Source of the DNA: Rhina ancylostomus
Taxonomy: Eukaryota
Length of the DNA stretch: 64,000 nt
Assembly: GCA_030265395.1 (NCBI GenBank)
Contig: JARFYF010000012.1
Span: 38,408,393-38,472,392, forward strand
Direction of reading: 5' to 3'
Below the pieces are notes generated by a model. That model saw nothing but the letters and a program-made list of their open reading frames with translations, searched no databases and was not told the DNA's origin. This document shows positions 13,130 through 61,379 of the stretch, one piece after another (position 1 is the stretch's first letter; the number at the start of each line of letters is the position of its first letter). The position numbers were made by a program, and so were the translations under genes.

Positions 13130-13465
13130 TATCAGCGAGCTCCTTGAGAAACCGTAACGTTCCTACGAGGTCCTGCAAATCTCTCCACCCTGACTACTCA
13201 AAGAGGGGAAGCTGCATTTGGAATGGTGTTGAGAAGCTCCAGTCCGTGCATGAGGAGCACCTGGAGGCTCCATCTGACCAGTGGATAGAGCACGCCCCCT
13301 CACAAACCACCCACCCACTTGTCTGGTCAGCCAGCATCTGCCCCAGCTGTGAAAGAGTGCACTCTTTCCAACACTCATCAGCCATCTCAGAACCCACAAA
13401 ACTGGACTGGAAGGTGCTCATCCTCAATTCCAAAGAATTACCTTGGAAGAAGACTGGGCATTAAA
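13130..13465 (+). mobile_element. RTE-type LINE 3' fragment
   Basis: C-terminal zinc-finger remnant CPSCERV, then frameshifted LISHLRTH (ctcatcagccatctcagaacccac), typical of RTE ORF ends. Confidence 0.7.
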
Positions 13466-22015: not shown

Positions 22016-25000
22016 CCGAAAAGTTAGAAGGTTTAAGAAAAAATTGCAGGGCAGTAGAGATGGAGAGTGAGGCTCTGGAAAGAACTGGCTTGGTTCCAAA
22101 GGCTGAAATCCTCCTCCTCCTGTTCTATAACAGTTCTACAATTCTAAGTAACTGTTTGCTAATCAGTCACTAAGGAAGTTATTGCCTTTTTAATTATTTT
22201 GACCAGATGCCAAACTATGCTCCTCTCTCACCTGAGACAGATTTCTCATGATGGATCTGAATCCTTGAAGTAATAAATAATCATCAGTAATGGCTTCTTT
22301 GGTTATGTGGGTTGAAAGTTTGACACTAGAGGGCAATTGAGTGCTTTGGTGAACATTGTACTCTGAACCAATGTAGGTACTTCCTTAACTGGAGCTGTTC
22401 AAAGTGTACTCAGCCTGGCTTTGTGCCTGTGGAGATTTTTATCACGAGGTTTCAGTAAAATATTATGCTCTTAAGTAGTGGCAAAGACTGCAATACAGTT
22501 AGATGGCTCTTGCAAGCTCTATTGGAAATAGGAAAAAGCTAATGCCCTTGGGGAAACCCCAAAGTGGGTTCTGACCAATGAAGTAACTTTTGAAGCATAA
22601 CCAATGTTGTAATTAAAGGTGCCAAAGAGACCAATTTACACACAGCATGCCCCCACAGAGAGAAGTGCAGTAAATGACCATATCATTTGCTTTAGTAATG
22701 TTGATTGTTGGGCAGGAGCCTAGGCAGAACTTCATGCTGTTCTTCACAGTGGTGCCGTGAGGTTTTCATGTTTATTATTGTCATAGGCACATGTATACAG
22801 GGTATAAATGCCATGAAAATTAGTTTTTTGCAGCTGCAGCCCAGTGCATTATAAGATGAGGACAAAGTTCACCTAATTATTCATCCATTTTCACTTGAGA
22901 AGGTAAGTGGGTTCTTGGATAATTTTTGAAAGGTAGCACTTCTGACAATGTGATTCTCCATTGGCACTGGAATGTCGATCTGGGCAATGTGATCAAATCC
23001 TTGGTGGGGGGGGAGATCTCCCCCCCCCCCCCCCCCCCCCCCTCTCTTTGTATTATAAGTAGCTGTGTACAGGAAGTTAAAGAATAAATGTTTCATGAAA
23101 ACCACATCACAGCAGTTGCTGGCTAGTTTGTTGTGTTGGATGCTGAGATATGTGGAGTATTTGGAATAACATGGGTCTTTGACTCATCCTCAGTGGCTTA
23201 ATCATAATATAGGCCTCTGCTTTAATATGGAGGCCTCCTGTGGCCAATTATACTCAAATAGATGAGTAGAGTCTAGAAAATATTCTCTTTCAAAATTGAT
23301 TCTAGATTTGTTGTACGTGATGACGTGTTCCAACCAATATCAGTAAGCTTTAAGGATTTATTGTTAGATGCCTGTTGATAGGAACAAGCCACTACCCATA
23401 CCTGGAGGCCACTCATTAGCACTAATTTCGTTTACCAACTTTCCAAGATCGATCAAGTGTTTTTAGACATTAAAGATTAATCTCCAGGATGTTGCTGTGA
23501 CTGAGCAGGGAGAGAAGTTGAAAACAATTGTTTGCTTTATTTTCTTTTGAAGAATATTGCAGATGTGAAGCAGTGCCATTTGACTGGATAGGGAGGTAGG
23601 AGGTCATGTGATTAAAACCTCCAAGAATATGTCTGGCTAAAGAACCTCCTCTCTCTGTCATCATTTGCTCACGAGGCCAGATTCACTGTCCTGCCACCGG
23701 AACTAGGGCTGCAGCACTGGAGTGCTTATTTACCGACCTGTGCTCCATTCCAGCACTACTCCCCACTGGCAACATGACGCCATGAATTATGGTTCGAGTG
23801 GTGACAGCTGTTGGAGGGAACATAAGCACAGTCGGGCTACAAATCCCAGGCCCACAAAACATGGGGCCAGATCTTTGAGGTATTAATTCTGATAGGCTTG
23901 ACAAAAGATGTGACCTTTTGGTCACCTCGGAGACTGTAGGTCATGCGTTCAAGCTTCAACAATCCCTCCCCCGTCCAATATTCCTCGTCATCCCCAATCT
24001 ACCCCCATCCCGAGATTTGACGTGTGGTCTTCATTGGCACTTGACTGCAGCATTGAGGTAACACTTTTTAAGTTGGCGTGGAAGATCCATGATGCCGTTC
24101 AAAGTGGAGCAGGAAATTCTAATATCCTGGTCGATGTAAATAAATTAAGTGTCACTCATCTTCTTTCTTTGTGACATTTACAGAGTGTATCTCTTTACTT
24201 AAAGAGCTCTTTTTAAAATCAATTTGTTTCAAAATGCCCTGAGACGGACTGAAATTATTTTGTTCTAGACTGTTAAAAGTTGTTTTTGAACACATTTTTA
24301 TTTTAGTTTTATTTTTAGTGCAATGAACAAAAGTATTGCCTGTTGCATTTCTGGCCCATGCCAAAGAATTTATTCAATCATTATGTGCCTGTACTTGCAC
24401 GAAATCCTGCCCACTGAACTTCATTAGCCACCAGTCTACCAACAGCATGAGTTTAAGATATCATCCTTGCATTCAAATGCTTTATGGCCTGACTCTTTAA
24501 ACTCCCTTTAGCTTTATAGCTGTCTTGAAAATGTTTCCTCAGCTTTGGCACAACAACCACCATTTGCTTGACTATTTTGTTATTTCAAAAATAAACTTTA
24601 TTCATAGAAAATATCTACAGGAAATACATTACAATCAATACATGTCTTTCCTTGCATTCATAGTGTCATCAAAACAACAAATCAAAACATTCATTGTCCT
24701 GTCATACCAATACATTATATTTACAATGCACCAAAGCCAGTCATGCTTCCTGCTCCATTTTTGGTGGCCACATATAAAGTTGTCTAGGCTCTAGATTCTG
24801 GATTTTTCTTCTTAAGCTTTTGCCTGCCATTCCTCACTCCTCATTTTAAGGTGCTCTGAAAAACACTCTTCCGTCCAACTATTTGTTCTGATTTCTTATG
24901 TGGTCCAGTAAAAGGAGGAACATCAGAGGGAGAATGGAATAATATGTTGAGTAAAGTGAATTTTTTGTCTAATTGTGTTTTTGTGATGCTTGTTGGAGTA

Positions 25001-26596: not shown

Positions 26597-26997
26597 CAGG
26601 CATTCCCTGGGTATGACAGGGTTCCTGAGAACTGTTCGTAACCCGAACTGTTTGTAAATCAGAAATGAACATAAACAGCGTGTGGGAGGAGACCACAGGA
26701 ACCACTATGGCCAGAGCGAGCAGGCGTGGGGAGACCAGCTGCCAGCCATTGCTCACTGACTCAGTGAGCAAGTCTGCTCAGTGACTCAGTGAGCAAGTCT
26801 GCTCAGTGGTCTCAGCTCGACCTAGTCCCTCAGAGGTTGGGGGGGAATGGAGGGAAGGCACATGGAAATGCCCTATTCCACCCGCCAGGTGATGGCTGCA
26901 GTCCCGCAGCAGCTTGCAAATCCATCCTGCACGTCTCTCAAGTGTTGTTCAAGTGTACCGGGTGTCCATACACGGTTTGTAACATGGGGAGCACATG
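26597..26997. mobile_element. Tc1/mariner (Tigger-like) non-autonomous DNA transposon
   Basis: TA on both flanks. Imperfect terminal inverted repeats caggcattccctgggtatga / tgtaacatggggagcacatg, with subterminal gttcgtaacc-type motifs. Confidence 0.6.
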
Positions 26998-27649
26998 TAC
27001 TCTGAGTGTGATCCCAAATTGCTAGGGACATTGAAAGCAATAATTAAACTTCCCAGGGGAACTAAGGAGCTTCAGAAATGCAGAGTTGCAGGAGTGGTAC
27101 AGTGAGAGGAACGGAGGTTATGCTATGGTGGGGAATGTTGATGCAGTGTATAGAAGAGGGGGCTATCAAGGGTGATGGGTCAGTAAGGGACTTGGCTGAT
27201 AGGATTCCCAGTCAGCGCTGCACTGGGAAGACCTGGTTGCCCCTCGAGTGCTCAGTGTTGGTTGCTCCCAGGTCAATTTGGCTTGCGTTCCCCCTGCAGT
27301 GCTTGCACCGAGATGCCCCATTGTGACTTGCACTCCGAAGTGTCTGGCTAAATTTATGAAGTGACATGAAACAACCTTTAGGATGGGAGGTTTAGGAAAA
27401 AAGGGATTTCTATCACATTGGGTTTCTTTTCAAGTAAAACATTAGTGCAATTGAATTTCTGGGCACACATACTTGCTGTCATTTAAGATGATAATTAATC
27501 CTCTTTGCTCCAGTTTCACACAACAAGAAAGGATCCTCACATCAATGTAACAACACAATATGTGATTTTAAATTTTGTAGGCTTGATTTACCTAAATAGT
27601 GATGATATATGTGACCTGACTGTAATTTAGAGTAGTATTACTAGATGTG

Positions 27650-29412: not shown

Positions 29413-30650
29413 AACTAGTGGAGTTCCCCAAGGTTCTTGCCCCTCTATTTATGATTTAATAATGATCAGGAGGAGGGGGTAAGTTTGTCAATGGTACAAA
29501 AATAAATGGGACCGCCTGTTGTGATGAAGGTTTTAGGATGCAGGTTGAATGAGTGGGTAAAAACTTGGCAGGTGGAGTCTAATGGTGGGAAAGTGGGAGG
29601 TTGTGCATTTCAGTAAGAGGAGTTTTAAATGGAGAAAGATTGCAGATGAGTGAAGTACAGATGAATCTAATTGTTCTCATGCACGCATCACAAGAAGTTG
29701 GAATAAACTAGTCTTTTATTACAACAAATGTTTAGGAAGGCACATTGCTCATTGGCCTTTATTGTGGGTTGAAGTTTAGAAATGGGGAAGTCTTGTTACA
29801 ATTGTACAGGGTACTAGTGAGGCCGTACCTGGAGTACTGTGCATGGCTTTGGTCCCCTTATTTAAGAAGGATATACTGATGGTCCAAAAGAGATTCACTG
29901 GGCTAATTCCTGGGATGAGATGGTTGTCGTATCACAAGTGGCTAATGTACTTGGGTCCTATGTTCTTTGGAGCTTTCAAGACTGAGGGATAATCTTATTA
30001 AAACATACATGATTGTTAGAGGCATGACAGGGTAGGTGTCAAGATCTCTCCACTAGTGGGAGAATCTCAAACAAGGGGACATAGTTACAAGATTAATGGG
30101 GCGGTCATTTAAAACTGAGGTGTGTAGCAACTTCTTGCAGAGGATGGTAAATTTCTGAAATTCTCTGTCCTTGTGGAGGGTAAACCATTGGGGTGTAGCG
30201 ACTAGCTACACTGAATAAAGACACGGGACACTTGTTTGGAGTCCAAGAGTCGAATGAATGACTGGGGTNNNNNNNNNNNNNNNNNNNNNNNNNNNNNNNN
30301 NNNNNNNNNNNNNNNNNNNNNNNNNNNNNNNNNNNNNNNNNNNNNNNNNNNNNNNNNNNNNNNNNNNNTGGGCTCCACGAGCCCACAAAGGAGGAGTGCC
30401 CCGCGCCATCTTGTGTCGGGGCTTCCGACGACGCTCGCAATCGTGGGAGCCGGTTCGTGAAAGGTAAGTCGCCACAGGGGCTGTTTAAAGAGGTAGTAGA
30501 TACAGTTTTGAAAGATCAAGTATTTAAAGGTTATGAGGAACCAGCATGGAAGAGATGAGGCCCGGAACAGACCAGCCACCATCATAACAAATGACAGGGC
30601 AGGCTTGAGGGGCCGAGTGGCCTACTCCTGTTTTCTTGTGTTGTTATGGA
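29413..30650 (+). mobile_element. CR1 3' fragment, interrupted by an LTR insertion
   Basis: ctagtgaggccgtacctggagtactgtg (LVRPYLEYC), agagattcactgggctaattcctggg, and tail gaggggccgagtggcctactcctg. Confidence 0.85.
30194..30476. mobile_element. LTR-retroelement insertion (solo LTR, or element collapsed across the gap)
   Basis: TG...CA ends with inverted termini tgtagcgact / agtcgccaca, 4-bp gggg on both flanks, CpG-rich, and precisely splits CR1 sequence. Confidence 0.8.
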
Positions 30651-31489
30651 GTTTGGAATAATGACTTCTTGAAAGACTGAACTGCATTCTCTCAGTTGCA
30701 CTGAAGCGTTGACCTGGATTCAATAGTTAAACCTTTTGTAGGGCTTTGTCACACATTGCCTTGTAATTCAGAGATATGTGTACTACCATGTTGGCTCTTG
30801 TAATGTAAGAATAGTTCAGTCCAGTTAATAAAATTGGCTGAATCATTGGTTGAACTAACCAGCATTGCATGAATATTACCAAAAAAAAAAGCCATTAAAT
30901 TGTGCAACTCCAAGTAATTTTTGTAAAAAAAAATATTTGGACCACCAACATTGAGAAATGTGAATTAGTTTCTGAATGAGTTTAAAGTGGGTTTGAATGG
31001 GACCAAGGTGAACATTTAAAAGGAAACAAGTTATTTTGCACTCCTCTGAGGCATGGGTGCTACTTTTTGTGGAATGGTTAATTCAGTGAATTTCCTCAGA
31101 TCTGTTTTCTCACAGGAAGTACACTTTAACTTAAGAGTTTAATTAAAATTATGAAGCTGGCTGTTTCTTTATGCTAACGAAATAAAGTGCCTAGAAATTT
31201 GTCAGCGCCTTTAAAGACCCATTAGTTGGGAAGCTTGTGATGAGTCAACAGGGATGCTATTCATGGGCTTGCCACTGGGATGTTCAATGCCATATGAGGC
31301 ATGGAATCCACAGAAGACCCAGATGGAAATTTCAGATTTCATGCACCTTGCATAAAGTGCCCAACTTTCATTTAGGTTCTGTATACATTGGTGTTAGATC
31401 ATTGTAAAGCTCATAGATACAGAATTGTGCCACCTAATTTCAAAGCAGAGCTTTACCACCTGGAACGACCATGTAATGTAAAGGATCCT

Positions 31490-32090: not shown

Positions 32091-33339
32091 GAGCTTCAAT
32101 TCCCTGTACACACCAGAGAGAAACCAGCTGTCTCCTTAATGTTGGATGAAACTAAATAAAGTATCTTAAATTTGAAACATATTGTTCACAGTGATGATTT
32201 AAGAAAAAGGTTGCAGTGAGAAATAGTGGATTGCAATGCCGATTTTTATGCCTCAGAATATCTGGCATTATTGCTTTAATCATCGACATAATGAGACAGG
32301 ATGTCCGATCCCAAAAGGGAGATGGTTGCAAACTGAACTGTTTATACTATGTGTGTTTTGGTCTGTGAAAAGAATTATGGAAAGAATATAATAACTGAAG
32401 TAATGGGATCATGTTCCAGTGAAACTTAAATTGGATTTTCATTTGCAGTAATTAAGAGGTTGTTTTGTTCACATTCTGGCACCAGCACTTGAAACCTAAT
32501 AGTTGAAGAGTATATTTATGTCATGGTGCAAGATAATCCTTTGTTAAGTTTGCTGCACTACTCGATTTACATGCCTGATATTTAAACCTGGGGTTTTATG
32601 TTCATTAATATTCTAGGAGGATATAGTACATTAGCCCAATAAATTACTTATGATTTAATTTTATAGTTTAATGCTGCCTTTTATAGACAAAGATTTAAAG
32701 GACACTGTAAACTCTGACTTCCAAATAAAACAAAGAATTAACCTGCAAGTTTATTTTAATTACTGAAACTTTTATCCTACTAAGAAATGGTGGCGTCAGC
32801 TGTTTGCACAACAAAGCAGTAACACCTTTGTTTCAAAACCTGCGGTGGCCCTTTGGACTTTGAAATTGTCCATGTCCATTTTAGACTGCAGCTTCCAACA
32901 CTTAACGAAGGAAGTTGTTTGTGTTTGGCAACGTGCTTTTATAGCCATTAGCATGTCAGTCTTCAGCAGATAATGAACCTGCAGAGTTAATTGCAAGGCG
33001 ACGATTTTAATAAAATGATCAAAAGCTGTGGTGAGCTTCAATTCCCAATAAGCATAGGAGGGAGAAGTGGAATCTTAGAGGACACAACTCTCTCTGGTAA
33101 TTTATTACCTAAATGCTATTAAGTTATCTTTATCCTGCTTTCTAATAATTCATCTGCTTGTGTCCAGTTTGTGCAGAATTGTTATTGTGTTATGGTTTTA
33201 TGTACTTGAAAACTATCGGCAAACTGATCTATCTTTGTAGTCATTTTTAAGTGTATGGGAAATTTTGTTCGTTGTGTTTGCTTGTAGACATCAATATATC
33301 TGACTATTTACAGCAGAACCAGGATCTCTAAAATATTGA

Positions 33340-33808
33340 AAGTCCCATAAATATCAAATTACACAAAACCATGAGCCAGCACATCATCCCTGTGCCGCAT
33401 TCTTTGACATGAGTAACTGGGCTCTGAGTTGTAAGCGGGTGCAGTGCCTTTCAATTGAGTTGGCAATTGGAGCCAGGAAAGCAACTCCAGTAATTGAAAT
33501 CATTCTTACTATGAAAGAGGTGGGACGAGATGACAACAAATGGGCTGTGAAGAGCTGGAGCTCGTATGTAAGGTTTTTTTAAATTCTGCTTGGCGGTTCA
33601 TTTTTTTTAGTTTCGTCAGTGATCTGTTGTTATTTGAGTAATCGTCCTCTTGAGCCCAAGTAAAAGCTGTTGTGGGCACAAGACAGGAAGCACGATTATT
33701 GGCAAGTGGTTCAACTTACCGTGCATCGGAGTGGCAGGGATGATGCATATCGCCACATGCTGCAGTGCTAATGTCAGAGGCTGATAGAACCNNNNNNNNN
33801 CAACTGAA
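33340..33808 (+). promoter_or_regulatory. Putative internal promoter / 5' UTR of the short ARID5B isoform
   Basis: Apparently repeat-free, with somewhat more CpG than the flanks, directly upstream of the ATGG|gt site. AP-1-like TGAGTAA at 33410-33416. Boundaries uncertain. Confidence 0.4.
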
Positions 33809-33812
33809 ATGG
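33809..33812 (+). CDS. ARID5B: Candidate coding end (ATG G) of an alternative first exon for a short ARID5B isoform
   Basis: gaaATGG|gtaaca: good Kozak context (purine at -3, G at +4) directly followed by a phase-1 donor. Splicing to 36601 gives ATG GCA CTA AAT CTC = MALNL. Confidence 0.65.
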
Positions 33813-36600
33813 GTAACAGTTCTTGTTTTCACTTTCTATGTTTATTCTGTGAATCCTTTTGTACTTTGTGATTGCTTGTGTTTATCAAGTCAGTAGGGCA
33901 ATAAATGTTTTTGGTTAGTGTACCCTGTGGCTCAATGTCGGTGTAATGTTTAGTAAAGGTCCAAATGTCTCCCACAGTAGTATTAAATTAACTAAATTAA
34001 AAAATAGCTGCCGCACACATAGCTCTTGATGCAGTAAAGTGATCAGGAGTTCATGGTACTATTCTAGGGTGTGTGTGGCCATAGTAAGGAGGTTTAGGTT
34101 CACTTTTATTGCAATCTATACAGGATGCCATCATATTTTAATAATGGTAAAATTATTCCATCCCAAGCCATTTTTGGACATATTCAGCTGAGCTGCAGTT
34201 TGTATGATATTTCTGAATCAGCTCAAATTGGATCACTTCCTCAGTCAGTGCTATTTAAAGGTCACCTTCACATTTGTTAAGTATGCTTCAGTAACTTGTA
34301 ATGTACAATGGAGAGCCTTTACTTAATTAACAGAGTAACATTTCTGAAAGATTACACCACAAAACTAAATAGACCAAAACTAAATAGTATGTCACTTTCA
34401 TGTTTTGGCTACAAACACAAATATCAAAAATAAACACTGTAAGACATTTGCATTGAAGGTAAATAATTCAAAGTACCAAATAAGGATAATAAGCGTTACA
34501 CATTTACCGTGTGCATAGTAGACTATATTTATTCTCAATGGATTTACAAATGCAAGCCTGCTTTGAAAATTGTAACATACAGCAGCAAGATTGGATTATG
34601 TTTCTTTGCCATATTTTCAGTGACTCCTTGGCTTTACAGCTATTTTGCTGAGTCCCATTACTCATTACAGTTTATGTTTGAACCCTGTCATTAAAACAGT
34701 CATCAGCTACTGAACAAATATACAGTAATTAAATAGGAATTGTGGCTTATTTCATGCAGCGTTTGATGTCCTGGCTGCCTTTTATAGTACGATATGAAAG
34801 AAAATATGAACTTCTGAGTTGTCAAACAATGTGCTTAATGATTACTAATCTCTCTGATCTTTTGCAACTGTTTTGCTTAAGTGCTTGAAACCAATCTCAA
34901 ATAGTCATGTTCCAGGCCGTTCTTATTTAGTTCCGGAATATTCCCACACAAGATTGCAAAAGGTGTTTGAATTCCTTTCCTTAAATGTGGCATTGGTGTA
35001 ACTGACATGAGTTGCATACCCTAGGGCATTGCTTGTATGGTATGAGCATGTCATTGTCAATGCTATCAATAGACAAGTACAGAGTGAGATTTATGGTAGG
35101 TTGGACCCTTCTAGGCAATAATGCACTAAATATTAAAACATGGCAGAGGGGTATTTGCTAGTATCAAGCAATGAAACTCCAGGCATGGCCTAGTATGGAA
35201 GGAGCACTGTACATTCAACCTGATTTATAACAAGCATTTCACCTTTTACTATGGGTGCACAGGAGGTTAAAACAACAACCTTACAAACATAAATTTGATC
35301 ACCACCGTTCTAGCTACAGTTCAAATACATTTTTGCAAGAGAGTCACCTCTGGATTATTTATGGATCTTTTACTGCTTTGGAAAAGCAGAAACGTATCCA
35401 TTGCAGGATTGGTAAATTGAAGACTACCACGTAAATGCCCCCGTAGGAAGTGACTGGAATCTAGCAAGGTTCACTTGGATTTGCTGCAATGAAATCCAGC
35501 TGCAGCAAAACAGTAACACTTCCACCCCTGTGCATCTGCTCTTCAGCTGCCTGTTATACATCTCTTCCAATTTCCATTTCACTGGAATTCAATAGGTGGT
35601 TGAGTCTATCTGTTGTACGCAATTACTCAAAATGAAAATTTAGCACGCAAGATCTCCATCGTTTTAGGTGATCTAAGCACATTGATGCTGAGTCAAGGAA
35701 GAAATAGCTTTGTCTGCAAGAAGCACGGTGTAAAGGTTTGGTTTGGAGCCCACTCTCTGTTACTGGGCAATGTTACCAAGTCTACCTGTACAACAGTGGA
35801 AGGCCAGATTTGCTATAACATTGACATCGTGATTAAGGACCTGCCATTATCAACACATAGGTGTCCGACTATGAATCTTCTTCGATGAGTTTACGGGCCA
35901 CTGCAGTTTGAACTCTGGTCAAAGGGGAGCCAAGGACACCAGTGGGTGGTGACTGAAGAATGAGAAATGGTAGTTCCTTGCCATAGGAAACCAAATGCTG
36001 ACAGTCTTGAAGATGATGCTACAGTGATTGAGGATTACAGTTTACAACTGAGTGACAAGGCTGCTGTTCTGTCAAAGCACGAGTTGCTGTTATGAGCAAA
36101 GTGTTTTTTTTAAATGCCATGTGACTTTCAAAAATTAAAAGCAAAATGTCATCAATGTGATAACTTTCTCTTTTGCAATTTCAGCTGAAGAAAATGTGCT
36201 TTGTTCAATATTTTGTAGAGCAAGTTATTTATAGCAGCAAAGTCGTACAGCTGCACAGAATGCACGTGCTTGTTAATGGAGATGCATTCGTTGCAATTTG
36301 CACTTGTCTCTCTCTGGAACCTGCAGTTTCTGTGCAAAATGCAGGGTTACACTGGGAATGGCTATTAAATCCACACCTGTATTTTCAGTAGGGAAAGCCA
36401 TGGTGTGCTAATCATCATGCCTTGTGTGTAAGTGGCTTAATTAAGGAAATGCAACTGTCTTAATGCTGGGTTGATTTGACCAGTGTAAACATACAGTGAT
36501 GTCAGTGTAGATTCATAAACATGATAAATTTATCTTGTAATTGGTTTTTCTTGCTGTTTTTTTGGCTTCTGAAAATCATTCGCCTCTTTATCGATTTCAG

Positions 36601-36719
36601 CACTAAATCTCAAAGGCCGACCTCGGAAGAAGAAGACCTGCTCCCAGAAGCGGGATGCACAAGCTCTCAATGGCTTGAGGGATTCCAATGAGGATTCAGA
36701 TGGGAAGAGCAATCCCAAG
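36601..36719 (+). CDS. ARID5B: ARID5B internal coding exon (equivalent to human exon 5); donor site hidden by N gap
   Basis: Polypyrimidine tract plus tttcag acceptor ending at 36600. Phase-1 translation (A)LNLKGRPRKKKTCSQKRDAQALNGLRDSNEDSDGKSNPK resembles recalled ARID5B APNLKGRPRKKKPCPQRRDS...DGKAVAK. Ends on a codon boundary just before the gap, compatible with the phase-0 next exon. Confidence 0.92.
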
Positions 36720-37149
36720 NNNNNNNNNNNNNNNNNNNNNNNNNNNNNNNNNNNTTAGTTCATAGCTTTTCCCCTCTTTGTTCCGGTAATCGGCAGCAAG
36801 GTGAAAGATTGTGGGCCCAGGCCCCACTTCAGAGACCGTTGCACAAAATCTAGGTTCGTGGTAGTATCAGCTGACTACCTAACTTGCCCCTTCTTCTACA
36901 AAGGTTTTCACTCCGTGTATTCTGTAACTTAATCCAGGCTGGTGTCCCACCCATAAACTTCAGAATCATCCTGAGCACCACCTCATTCCTGTAATGTCTC
37001 GACCCAGTTATTCATCGTTCCAATGTTTGCTAACATACCATGGCTCCTATTTAAGCAATATCTGACTTTAAAAGTCTCACTGAACCTTTCCATCTTCTCT
37101 TCCCGTCTCACATCTCTGTAATCTACTTCACCCCTACTACCAAGACTCA

Positions 37150-38165: not shown

Positions 38166-38370
38166 TCGAAATGTGAGCCCAAAACCACGATGGCAAAACC
38201 CAAGAATAACAACAGCAACTGCAAAAATATTGCAGCTGATGAAAAATCAAAGGTTGCAGCGGGCGATGAATGCAGAGCAGAGGAACAGGCTTTCCTCGTC
38301 ACTCTTTACAAGTATATGAAAGAAAGAAGTACTCCAATAGAAAGGATACCCTATCTTGGATTTAAACAAA
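38166..38370 (+). CDS. ARID5B: ARID5B coding exon, start of ARID domain
   Basis: ctcag acceptor and gtaagt donor; 205 bp. Encodes SKCEPKTTMAKPKNNNSNCK...DECRAEEQAFLVTLYKYMKERSTPIERIPYLGFKQ(I), the ARID5-type ARID N-terminus. Confidence 0.97.
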
Positions 38371-45151: not shown

Positions 45152-45204
45152 TTAACCTTTGGACTATGTTTCAAGCAGCCCAAAATCTAGGAGGATACGA
45201 AGCG
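45152..45204 (+). CDS. ARID5B: ARID5B 53-bp coding exon, ARID domain core
   Basis: ctttttaacag acceptor and gtaagt donor. Encodes (I)NLWTMFQAAQNLGGYEA, in phase with the previous exon (A+TT=Ile). Too short for the ORF track. Confidence 0.96.
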
Positions 45205-48875: not shown

Positions 48876-49354
48876 ANNNNNNNNNNNNNNNNNNNNNNNN
48901 NNNNNNNNNNNNNNNNNNNNNNNNNNNNNNNNNNNNNNNNNNNNNNNNNNNNNNNNNNNNNNNNNNNNNNNNNNNNNNNNNNNNNNNNNNNNNNNNNNNN
49001 NNNNNNNNNNNNNNNNNNNNNNNNNNNNNNNNNNNNNNNNNNNNNNNNNNNNNNNNNNNNNNNNNNNNNNNNNNNNNNNNNNNNNNNNNNNNNNNNNNNN
49101 NNNNNNNNNNNNNNNNNNNNNNNNNNNNNNNNNNNNNNNNNNNNNNNNNNNNNNNNNNNNNNNNNNNNNNNNNNNNNNNNNNNNNNNNNNNNNNNNNNNN
49201 NNNNNNNNNNNNNNNNNNNNNNNNNNNNNNNNNNNNNNNNNNNNNNNNNNNNNNNNNNNNNNNNNNNNNNNNNNNNNNNNNNNNNNNNNNNNNNNNNNNN
49301 NNNNNNNNNNNNNNNNNNNNNNNNNNNNNNNNNNNNNNNNNNNNNNNNNNNNNN

Positions 49355-49423
49355 CTACGACGAATTAGGAGGTAACCCTGGAAGCACCAGTGCAGCAACG
49401 TGTACTCGCAGACATTACGAGAG
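49355..49423 (+). CDS. ARID5B: ARID5B coding exon, visible 3' part (5' part and acceptor in N gap; expected start about 49326)
   Basis: Encodes YDELGGNPGSTSAATCTRRHYE(R), the invariant ARID5 motif, followed by AG|gtaaga donor (phase 2). Confidence 0.95.
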
Positions 49424-60000: not shown

Positions 60001-60622
60001 GTAATATCTATGCTCTGGAAATAAAATATTTGCAAGATTACATTGTTAGCTTTTGCAGGTTAGAAAAAAATCAGTAGCTTCCCAGATGAAGTGCTGTAGT
60101 AATGTTGCATTATATCACTGTTTCAAACTGAGCGGGTTTAAAAGCAAAGCAGATTTCTGACAGACTTGTTGAGACTCAAGTTAATATTTATAATTGCTTT
60201 AGTTGAACTTTGATCCTCTGACCCATTAGCAGTCACAGTCCTTGGATACCAAATTGCATTTCTATCACATCCCCATCCCCATCCCCACCCCCACTTCCAC
60301 TCCATCTCTTTTACTTAAATTTTACTCTGTTCCCGAGGGCTGGAGCTGACCAAACAGAAATCTGCCTTGTGGCCTCTGATATTGATTTTCACCATCGCTT
60401 CGCCTCCCGGTGACCAAATGCAGGAAAACCACAGAGAATGCAAAGTATTTTGCAAGTCCTGCCTAGTCGATGTAGTCTGGTGTGATTCTCTGAAAGGGAG
60501 CATCCTCCACTCCCCAAGCCTGCCATTAGTTTTGCTTCTGTAATAAAGGTCAGAGCCAATGTAACGGCAGCGTGCTTTCACTGAGCTTCTCTCTCACCGA
60601 GTGTGTTTCACGGCTGTTGCAG

Positions 60623-60821
60623 GCTGATCCTGCCCTATGAAAGATATATCAAAGGGGAAGAAGACAAGCCTCTACCTCCAGTCAAACCTCGGAAACAGGA
60701 GAACAGCTCCCAAGAGACGGAAAGCAAGATGAAGGCAGCTGGAACCAAACGGAAAAATGAACAAAACAGAAAAGTGAAAAAAGAAAAGGATACCACTCAG
60801 AAAATGAAAGAGAACTCTGAG
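60623..60821 (+). CDS. ARID5B: ARID5B 199-bp coding exon, end of ARID domain and basic linker
   Basis: gttgcag acceptor and gttagt donor; AG+G completes Arg. Encodes LILPYERYIKGEEDKPLPPVKPRKQENSSQETESKMKAAGTKRKNEQNRKVKKEKDTTQKMKENSE. The KPRKQENSSQE tail favours ARID5B over ARID5A. Confidence 0.96.
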
Positions 60822-61379
60822 GTTAGTGTCGTTCCCTTCTCCGCTGTACGTCTGTTTACCATTCTGTGTTATGACATTGTGAGTCATTGTTAACTATATT
60901 TCTCGAAAATGCCAGGTATTTTGTTTCTGAGGCTCTCAGCATGTTGGAAATAGACGGTACTTGTTGAAACTTCCCCACTCATTTCTATAATTTGCAACTT
61001 GTACAAAGGTAGCAAAGCTACAGCCGTGTGGCATCGGCAGGACAGAAATCATTTAGTCGCATTAAGTGTTGGACAAACATTCTAGTCTAACCATAAGAGC
61101 TCCTGGCATTAATTGCAGCATAGTATTTTGGTCATATTTTCCTTTTCGGTTAAGAATAAGCTGCAAATCAACCTGCAATCTTTACTCAGGTGCTCAGTTG
61201 CAAGGGCAGGGATTGCTCTAGTCCAGAGTTGCCATTTGATATATAACTGTGTAGGTTGGCAAGTGCCTTTGCCAAATTGTGCTATTAATTTATGCCGTTG
61301 CTCCCTGGTTTGGTGCAAAATTCTTGTGTAATCTGGTGTGTAGTATTGCCAAGTGCTTTAATCTGTACTATTCAAATGT

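Follow-up and report, generated by a model that had tools for sequence, protein, structure and literature searches.

ARID5B is a leukaemia-risk and developmental gene, and the question raised by this locus is whether a cartilaginous fish, like mammals, also starts it at an internal position, to make a short protein. In humans, a variant 2 is described in which a unique first exon, located in intron 4, is joined to exons 5-10 (PMC6122973); this exon was named 4b in a later study (bioRxiv 2026.01.15.698931). According to PMC13284713, the BAH domain is found only in long ARID5B and mediates the binding of HDAC1/2, and the two isoforms, which differ in this HDAC-binding domain, associate with opposite outcomes in B-ALL. 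The lengths of the isoforms appear as 1188 and 945 aa in PMC12247766, a preprint that calls the short form C-terminally truncated, contrary to the other papers, and promoter use was described to shift during B-cell differentiation (PMC8478642). The mammalian short isoform devoid of the N-terminal BAH region, which the first-pass annotation of this DNA had invoked, is borne out by PMC6122973 and PMC13284713.

We identified the host gene in the window, i.e., the whole stretch of 64 kb that was analysed. With tblastn, five ARID5B exons were placed in it (Table 1). The aligned residues were identical to those of Leucoraja (little skate) ARID5B at 206 of 221 positions (93%), with 80-89% identity to other species, and the ARID domain (PF01388) was present. 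Because identity was highest with Leucoraja, the organism is a batoid. A search with the exon-5 peptide gave 13 matches, all of which carried the ARID domain; the 12 named ones were all chondrichthyan ARID5B. No match to exons 1-4 or to the last exon was found by tblastn within the window. The exon numbers were derived from the human 10-exon structure, as given in PMC6122973: since variant 2 shares the last six of the 10 human exons, the exons of the window are numbered 5-9, and the candidate start at 33809 lies in intron 4. Gene, taxon and phase had all been named correctly in the first-pass annotation, as judged from the exon matches, tblastn and the translation.

Table 1. Position of ARID5B exons and of candidate elements in the window.
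Feature	Position	Strand	Basis or remark
Candidate internal promoter / 5' UTR of a short ARID5B transcript	33200-33808	+	CpG content; putative
TATA-like CATAAATA	33346-33353	+	1 observed; reached by 38/500 shuffles; weak, best of 8 motifs
T-run + AG, acceptor-like; would make 33611-33812 an internal exon	33600-33610	+	Crude score 14
9-N run between candidate promoter and ATG; length nominal	33792-33800		Flanks without overlap
ATG+G, 4 coding nt of candidate first exon, counterpart of human exon 4b	33809-33812	+	Window letters
Candidate phase-1 intron, donor GTAACA, ending at exon-5 acceptor AG 36599-36600	33813-36600	+	Sequence only
Rival ATGG/GTCAGT, purine at -3	27175-27184	+	Donor 5.0 bits, 92nd percentile; upstream CpG o/e 0.29
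ARID5B exon 5, phase-1 start, donor within N run 36720-36754	36601-36719	+	95% to Leucoraja ARID5B 257-296
ARID5B exon 6, start of ARID domain	38166-38370	+	tblastn and borders
ARID5B exon 7	45152-45204	+	tblastn and borders
ARID5B exon 8, visible 3' part; 5' part within N run 48877-49354	49355-49423	+	tblastn
ARID5B exon 9	60623-60821	+	tblastn and borders

Several other observations were made on these exons. The window contains 13 N runs, six of them upstream of exon 5, and gene models made from the sequence would break at the two runs that cover the donor of exon 5 and the 5' portion of exon 8. The frame of exon 9 is open for about 70 nt beyond its donor (60585-60893), and this frame also continues into the intron in P0003, a 526-aa protein record from a related fish; the readthrough may represent a retained intron, RNA that is not yet spliced or an early 3' end. 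Exon 5 opens (36601-36640) with KGRPRKKK, which would be the very N-terminus of the predicted short form and which resembles a nuclear localisation signal or the core of an AT-hook; the motif was not reported by Pfam. Nor did Pfam, at E 0.1, detect the BAH domain in the Leucoraja ARID5B protein, while an Atlas comparison of this protein gave BAH clusters at 0.81, to be taken as a lead only.

The candidate start could be read directly in the window. The ATG (33809-33811) and the following G (33812) are preceded by GAA (33806-33808), so that the start has a purine (G) at -3 and a G at +4, and they are followed by the potential donor GTAACA (33813-33818). The intron leading from there to exon 5 would be 2,788 nt long. 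Translation of 36600-36719 yields a 40-residue open frame beginning with ALNLKGRP; as the G at 33812 provides the same first base of the Ala codon, the spliced start would read Met followed by the exon-5 peptide. The ATGG/GTAACA reported in the first-pass annotation, and its location about 2.8 kb before a phase-1 exon, thus agree with the letters, and the Met-Ala frame is restored. The candidate shares with the first exon of ARID5B variant 2 its position in intron 4, upstream of exon 5, as well as its coding content, ATG+G alone in phase 1, giving Met-Ala and exon 5. In our judgement, an as yet unannotated alternative first exon, the batoid counterpart of exon 4b, probably lies in intron 4 of ARID5B, with 33809-33812 as its coding end.

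We determined how often such a motif occurs by chance. ATGGGT was found 20 times on the + strand and 14 times on the - strand of the window, and RnnATGGGTRA twice and once, respectively. Estimated from the other occurrences in the window, the chance of at least one site in 3 kb was 0.55 for ATGG/GT, 0.21 for RnnATGG/GTR and 0.047 for RnnATGG/GTRA, the last figure being for a pattern chosen after seeing the site, with a rate taken from the two other sites of the window. The ATGG/GT motif at 33809 exceeds chance expectation only modestly. Of the 12 ATGG/GT sites present on the + strand upstream of exon 5, no other carries GTRA, and the CpG o/e upstream of 33809 exceeds that of all the others (0.47, with 0.42 as the second-highest value). 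With a scoring matrix of approximate frequencies, the donor of this site (33813) reached 3.4 bits, which corresponds to the 85th percentile of the GTs in 1-36600, compared with 9.4 bits for the real exon-6 donor; it ranked second of the 12, after 27175, and many stronger donors lie within 33300-36600. The site at 33809 is the best combined candidate visible, having the only GTRA, a position near exon 5 and a mild CpG patch. The local evidence suggests a first exon there, but falls short of being sufficient.

The number of ATGG/GT sites upstream of exon 5, together with the six N runs found there, would also fit a short form that exists in the ray and starts elsewhere, for instance at 27175, at a site masked by an N run or before the window begins, with 33809 as a chance motif. 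The site at 27175 has the better donor as well as a purine at -3, and a 25-bp tandem with TGACTCA lies in its surroundings. Furthermore, a Mustelus model has a different 34-aa first exon, for which no convincing match to the window was found among the matches listed (best E 0.79). However, 27175 is situated 9.4 kb from exon 5, at a background CpG level, while the human short-form first exon lies near exon 5, at a distance of no more than about 2 kb. We consider a start elsewhere unlikely. The stretch 26700-27400, which comprises 2.4 copies of the tandem, a GC-richer segment and 27175 itself, lies partly in a repeat and may be an enhancer or a rival first exon.

Returning to 33809, we analysed the region upstream of it as a candidate promoter. 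In 33200-34000 the GC content was about 0.40-0.42 and the CpG o/e 0.47-0.52, compared with 0.24 window-wide; the best 500-bp window of this region ranked 7th of 576 for CpG o/e and third among the non-exon patches. A CpG island is defined by a GC content above 0.5 and a CpG o/e above 0.6, and the candidate promoter region, with an o/e of 0.52 at that GC content, is therefore not one. Eight promoter motifs were counted in 33300-33791 and compared with 500 shuffles: none was clearly enriched, all being reached by at least 38 shuffles. No self-BLAST repeat was found in 33200-33808, no tandem repeat at the 33809 site and no Rfam match across the 64 kb. There are 10 upstream ATGs in 33301-33808; given an N run of indeed 9 bases, one of them overlaps the main ATG in another frame. 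It is only across this run that the candidate promoter and the main ATG are linked. Two other patches of intron 4 (23600-24400 and 30369-30900) have a CpG o/e of 0.5-0.6 and no self-BLAST repeat, and are candidate regulatory elements. ZBTB24 binds ARID5B promoters in mammals and has CAGGACCT as its core, according to PMC6212772 and PMC11780882. This core was rejected as a promoter mark, as none was found in 33300-33791; its sole occurrence in the window is at 13168-13175, and one 8-mer per 64 kb is near chance.

The same region contains a T-rich acceptor-like AG (33609-33610), which scored as well as the real exon-6 acceptor (95th percentile of the AGs in 1-36600). If used, it would turn 33611-33812 into an internal exon: a second exon in a short transcript starting further upstream, with the same protein made from a promoter elsewhere, or a cassette putting stops into the long transcript; there are indeed stops in all three frames between 33611 and the ATG region. 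The score is crude, however, 5% of the intron AGs doing equally well, and in PMC6122973 the human counterpart appears as a first exon. We consider an internal exon very unlikely.

The motif alone is weak; the case for 33809 as a first exon rests mainly on the comparison between species. We collected protein records in a search limited to 330-1050 aa, which favours short forms, and pooled its best 120 of 889 matches with those of other protein searches; 14 unnamed matches and two query peptides were excluded before counting. Among the matches listed, Met followed exactly by exon 5 was the start of 23 of the 64 named bony-vertebrate ARID5B proteins (9 mammals, 2 birds, 4 lizards, 5 frogs, 1 salamander and 2 eels), a ratio that is no frequency, since the search was length-biased. 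Two more of the 64 matches listed begin at this junction with Met-Ser or Met-Thr. In lungfish ARID5B, the Met-Ala junction follows nine extra residues, in which no convincing likeness to the bases before 33809 was seen by eye. Because the junction residue varies (A, S or T) with the upstream exon, phase 1 is confirmed across vertebrates. Most of the bony-vertebrate starts are those of gene models, some of which may have taken them over by homology. The conservation of the Met + exon-5 start from mammals to eels makes a chondrichthyan copy likely.

Further evidence was obtained from the paralogue ARID5A. The N-termini of ARID5A proteins align with the start of short ARID5B: almost the same 12 residues occur in coelacanth ARID5A, and the lizard protein begins with MAPSLKGKRKKK. 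When the first 12 residues of exon 5 were placed without gaps, the best match fell at residue 2-3 in 38 of 130 ARID5A-type proteins, where 0.42 was expected; in the other 92, which include many bird, teleost and turtle models, the match was further in or diverged, or the protein had a downstream start. One of the 38 is a paralogue from the shark Pristiophorus (P0181), which starts with MAPSLTGRSRR. This protein and six others (P0168, P0169, P0172, P0183, P0189 and P0191) are shark 'ARID5B-like' proteins without the long N-terminus that form a group of their own, apart from ARID5B; they are probably ARID5A orthologues or a third paralogue. In the alignment, the remaining six of these seven begin at other Mets, which lie farther downstream.

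In the chondrichthyan ARID5B proteins themselves, the Met + exon-5 start was found in none of the 14 named records among the matches listed, which are cluster representatives and include one (P0186) that we take, from its position in the tree, to be from a chimaera. The length-limited search contributed only two named chondrichthyan ARID5B proteins among its listed matches, both with other starts: that of Mustelus with the first exon mentioned above, and that of Cetorhinus starting at an internal Met. None of the records of Leucoraja, Rhinoraja, Heterodontus and Heptranchias has an isoform suffix. When nine other N-termini, those of Mustelus and lungfish among them, were compared with the window by tblastn, the matches listed were all at chance level. 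This absence from the 14 records, the weak donor at 33813 and the probability of 0.21 with which the relaxed motif is expected in 3 kb would be explained if cartilaginous fishes had lost the short ARID5B start or never used it, 33809 being neutral intron or a decayed remnant. Yet the records listed are cluster representatives only, and parsimony favours the presence of the start in the ancestor. Moreover, as six of the seven shark paralogue models lack the equivalent start while Pristiophorus has it, a missing model is weak evidence, even if a real loss may occur as well. We regard such a loss or lack of use as unlikely. The interpretation given in the first-pass annotation, a first exon of the short isoform, is partly supported, in so far as 33809 is the best visible candidate for a start conserved in bony vertebrates, and it is weakened by the 14 named chondrichthyan proteins.

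The age of the start was estimated from 32 selected proteins in a quick tree, unrooted and without outgroup, in which SH-aLRT support was 100 for ARID5B (five chondrichthyans and eight bony vertebrates), 99 for ARID5A and 100 for the shark paralogue. With a root outside ARID5B, the duplication predates the split between sharks and bony fishes, and the Met + exon-5 start, being present on both sides, predates the duplication. On this sequence comparison, the start is probably older than the ARID5A/ARID5B duplication, which itself probably belongs to the early vertebrate genome duplications. The origin in the jawed-vertebrate ancestor that the first-pass annotation had proposed for the two-promoter design is probably too young, since the same start in ARID5A and the shark paralogue implies an older one.

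In an Atlas comparison, residues 1-430 gave an arthropod ARID cluster at 0.95, and residues 1-255 gave it at 0.80. This is a lead only, which suggests that the long ARID5 form is ancestral. We give an even chance to the following scenario. The ATG+G start exon would already have been present in a single ARID5 gene before the duplication; ARID5B would have kept both promoters, including in cartilaginous fishes, at 33809, while ARID5A and the shark paralogue would have lost the BAH exons, so that the short isoform became fixed as a gene (isoform subfunctionalisation). A BAH-less form that does not recruit HDACs would then have been conserved since before the jawed vertebrates. The N-terminal homology of ARID5A and short ARID5B supports the fixation of the short isoform.

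In the ray, the mechanism that we propose is that a promoter upstream of 33809 would start a short transcript, whose first exon, with the ATG and base 1 of the Ala codon as its whole coding part, would be spliced, in the frame established above, to the phase-1 exon 5. Exons 5-10 would then give a protein of about 926 aa (1181 in Leucoraja minus 255), predicted to start with the basic motif KGRPRKKK and to keep the ARID DNA-binding domain while lacking the N-terminal BAH region. By analogy with the mammalian BAH-HDAC1/2 interaction, the choice of promoter may set the ratio of repressor-recruiting to non-recruiting DNA-binding ARID5B. The start would be ancestral, being common to ARID5B of bony vertebrates and to the paralogue ARID5A.

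The two-promoter design of ARID5B is already known in mammals and Xenopus, and it is annotated in eels; the ray exon would be an evolutionary extension of this design, not a new mechanism. In the literature searched, outside which most subscription papers lie, we found no report of a chondrichthyan short ARID5B, a form also absent from the 14 named proteins, nor of ARID5A as a fixed short isoform. If the ray keeps the internal start, the isoform switch is at least as old as the jawed vertebrates, and gene annotations in sharks and rays would have to be corrected. Should ARID5A be a short form that became fixed as a gene, it would offer a natural model for the function of the short isoform.

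ARID5A and the shark paralogue resemble short ARID5B in having Met and an exon-5-like motif, followed by the ARID domain, and no long N-terminal region. They differ from ARID5B in that they are separate genes, with no long form seen, and their exon boundary was deduced from the variable upstream residues of protein models, not from DNA. The closest known system is human variant 2: mammalian short proteins start with Met and exon 5, as predicted for the ray, whose exon is predicted from the sequence of one genome alone and whose third residue is Leu, as in batoids, instead of Pro. Outside mammals, the nearest likeness is with isoform 2 of arid5b in a tetrapod, Xenopus, where both isoforms, with and without the N-terminal region, were reported (Le Bouffant 2014, as cited in PMC9077328), as we propose for the ray.
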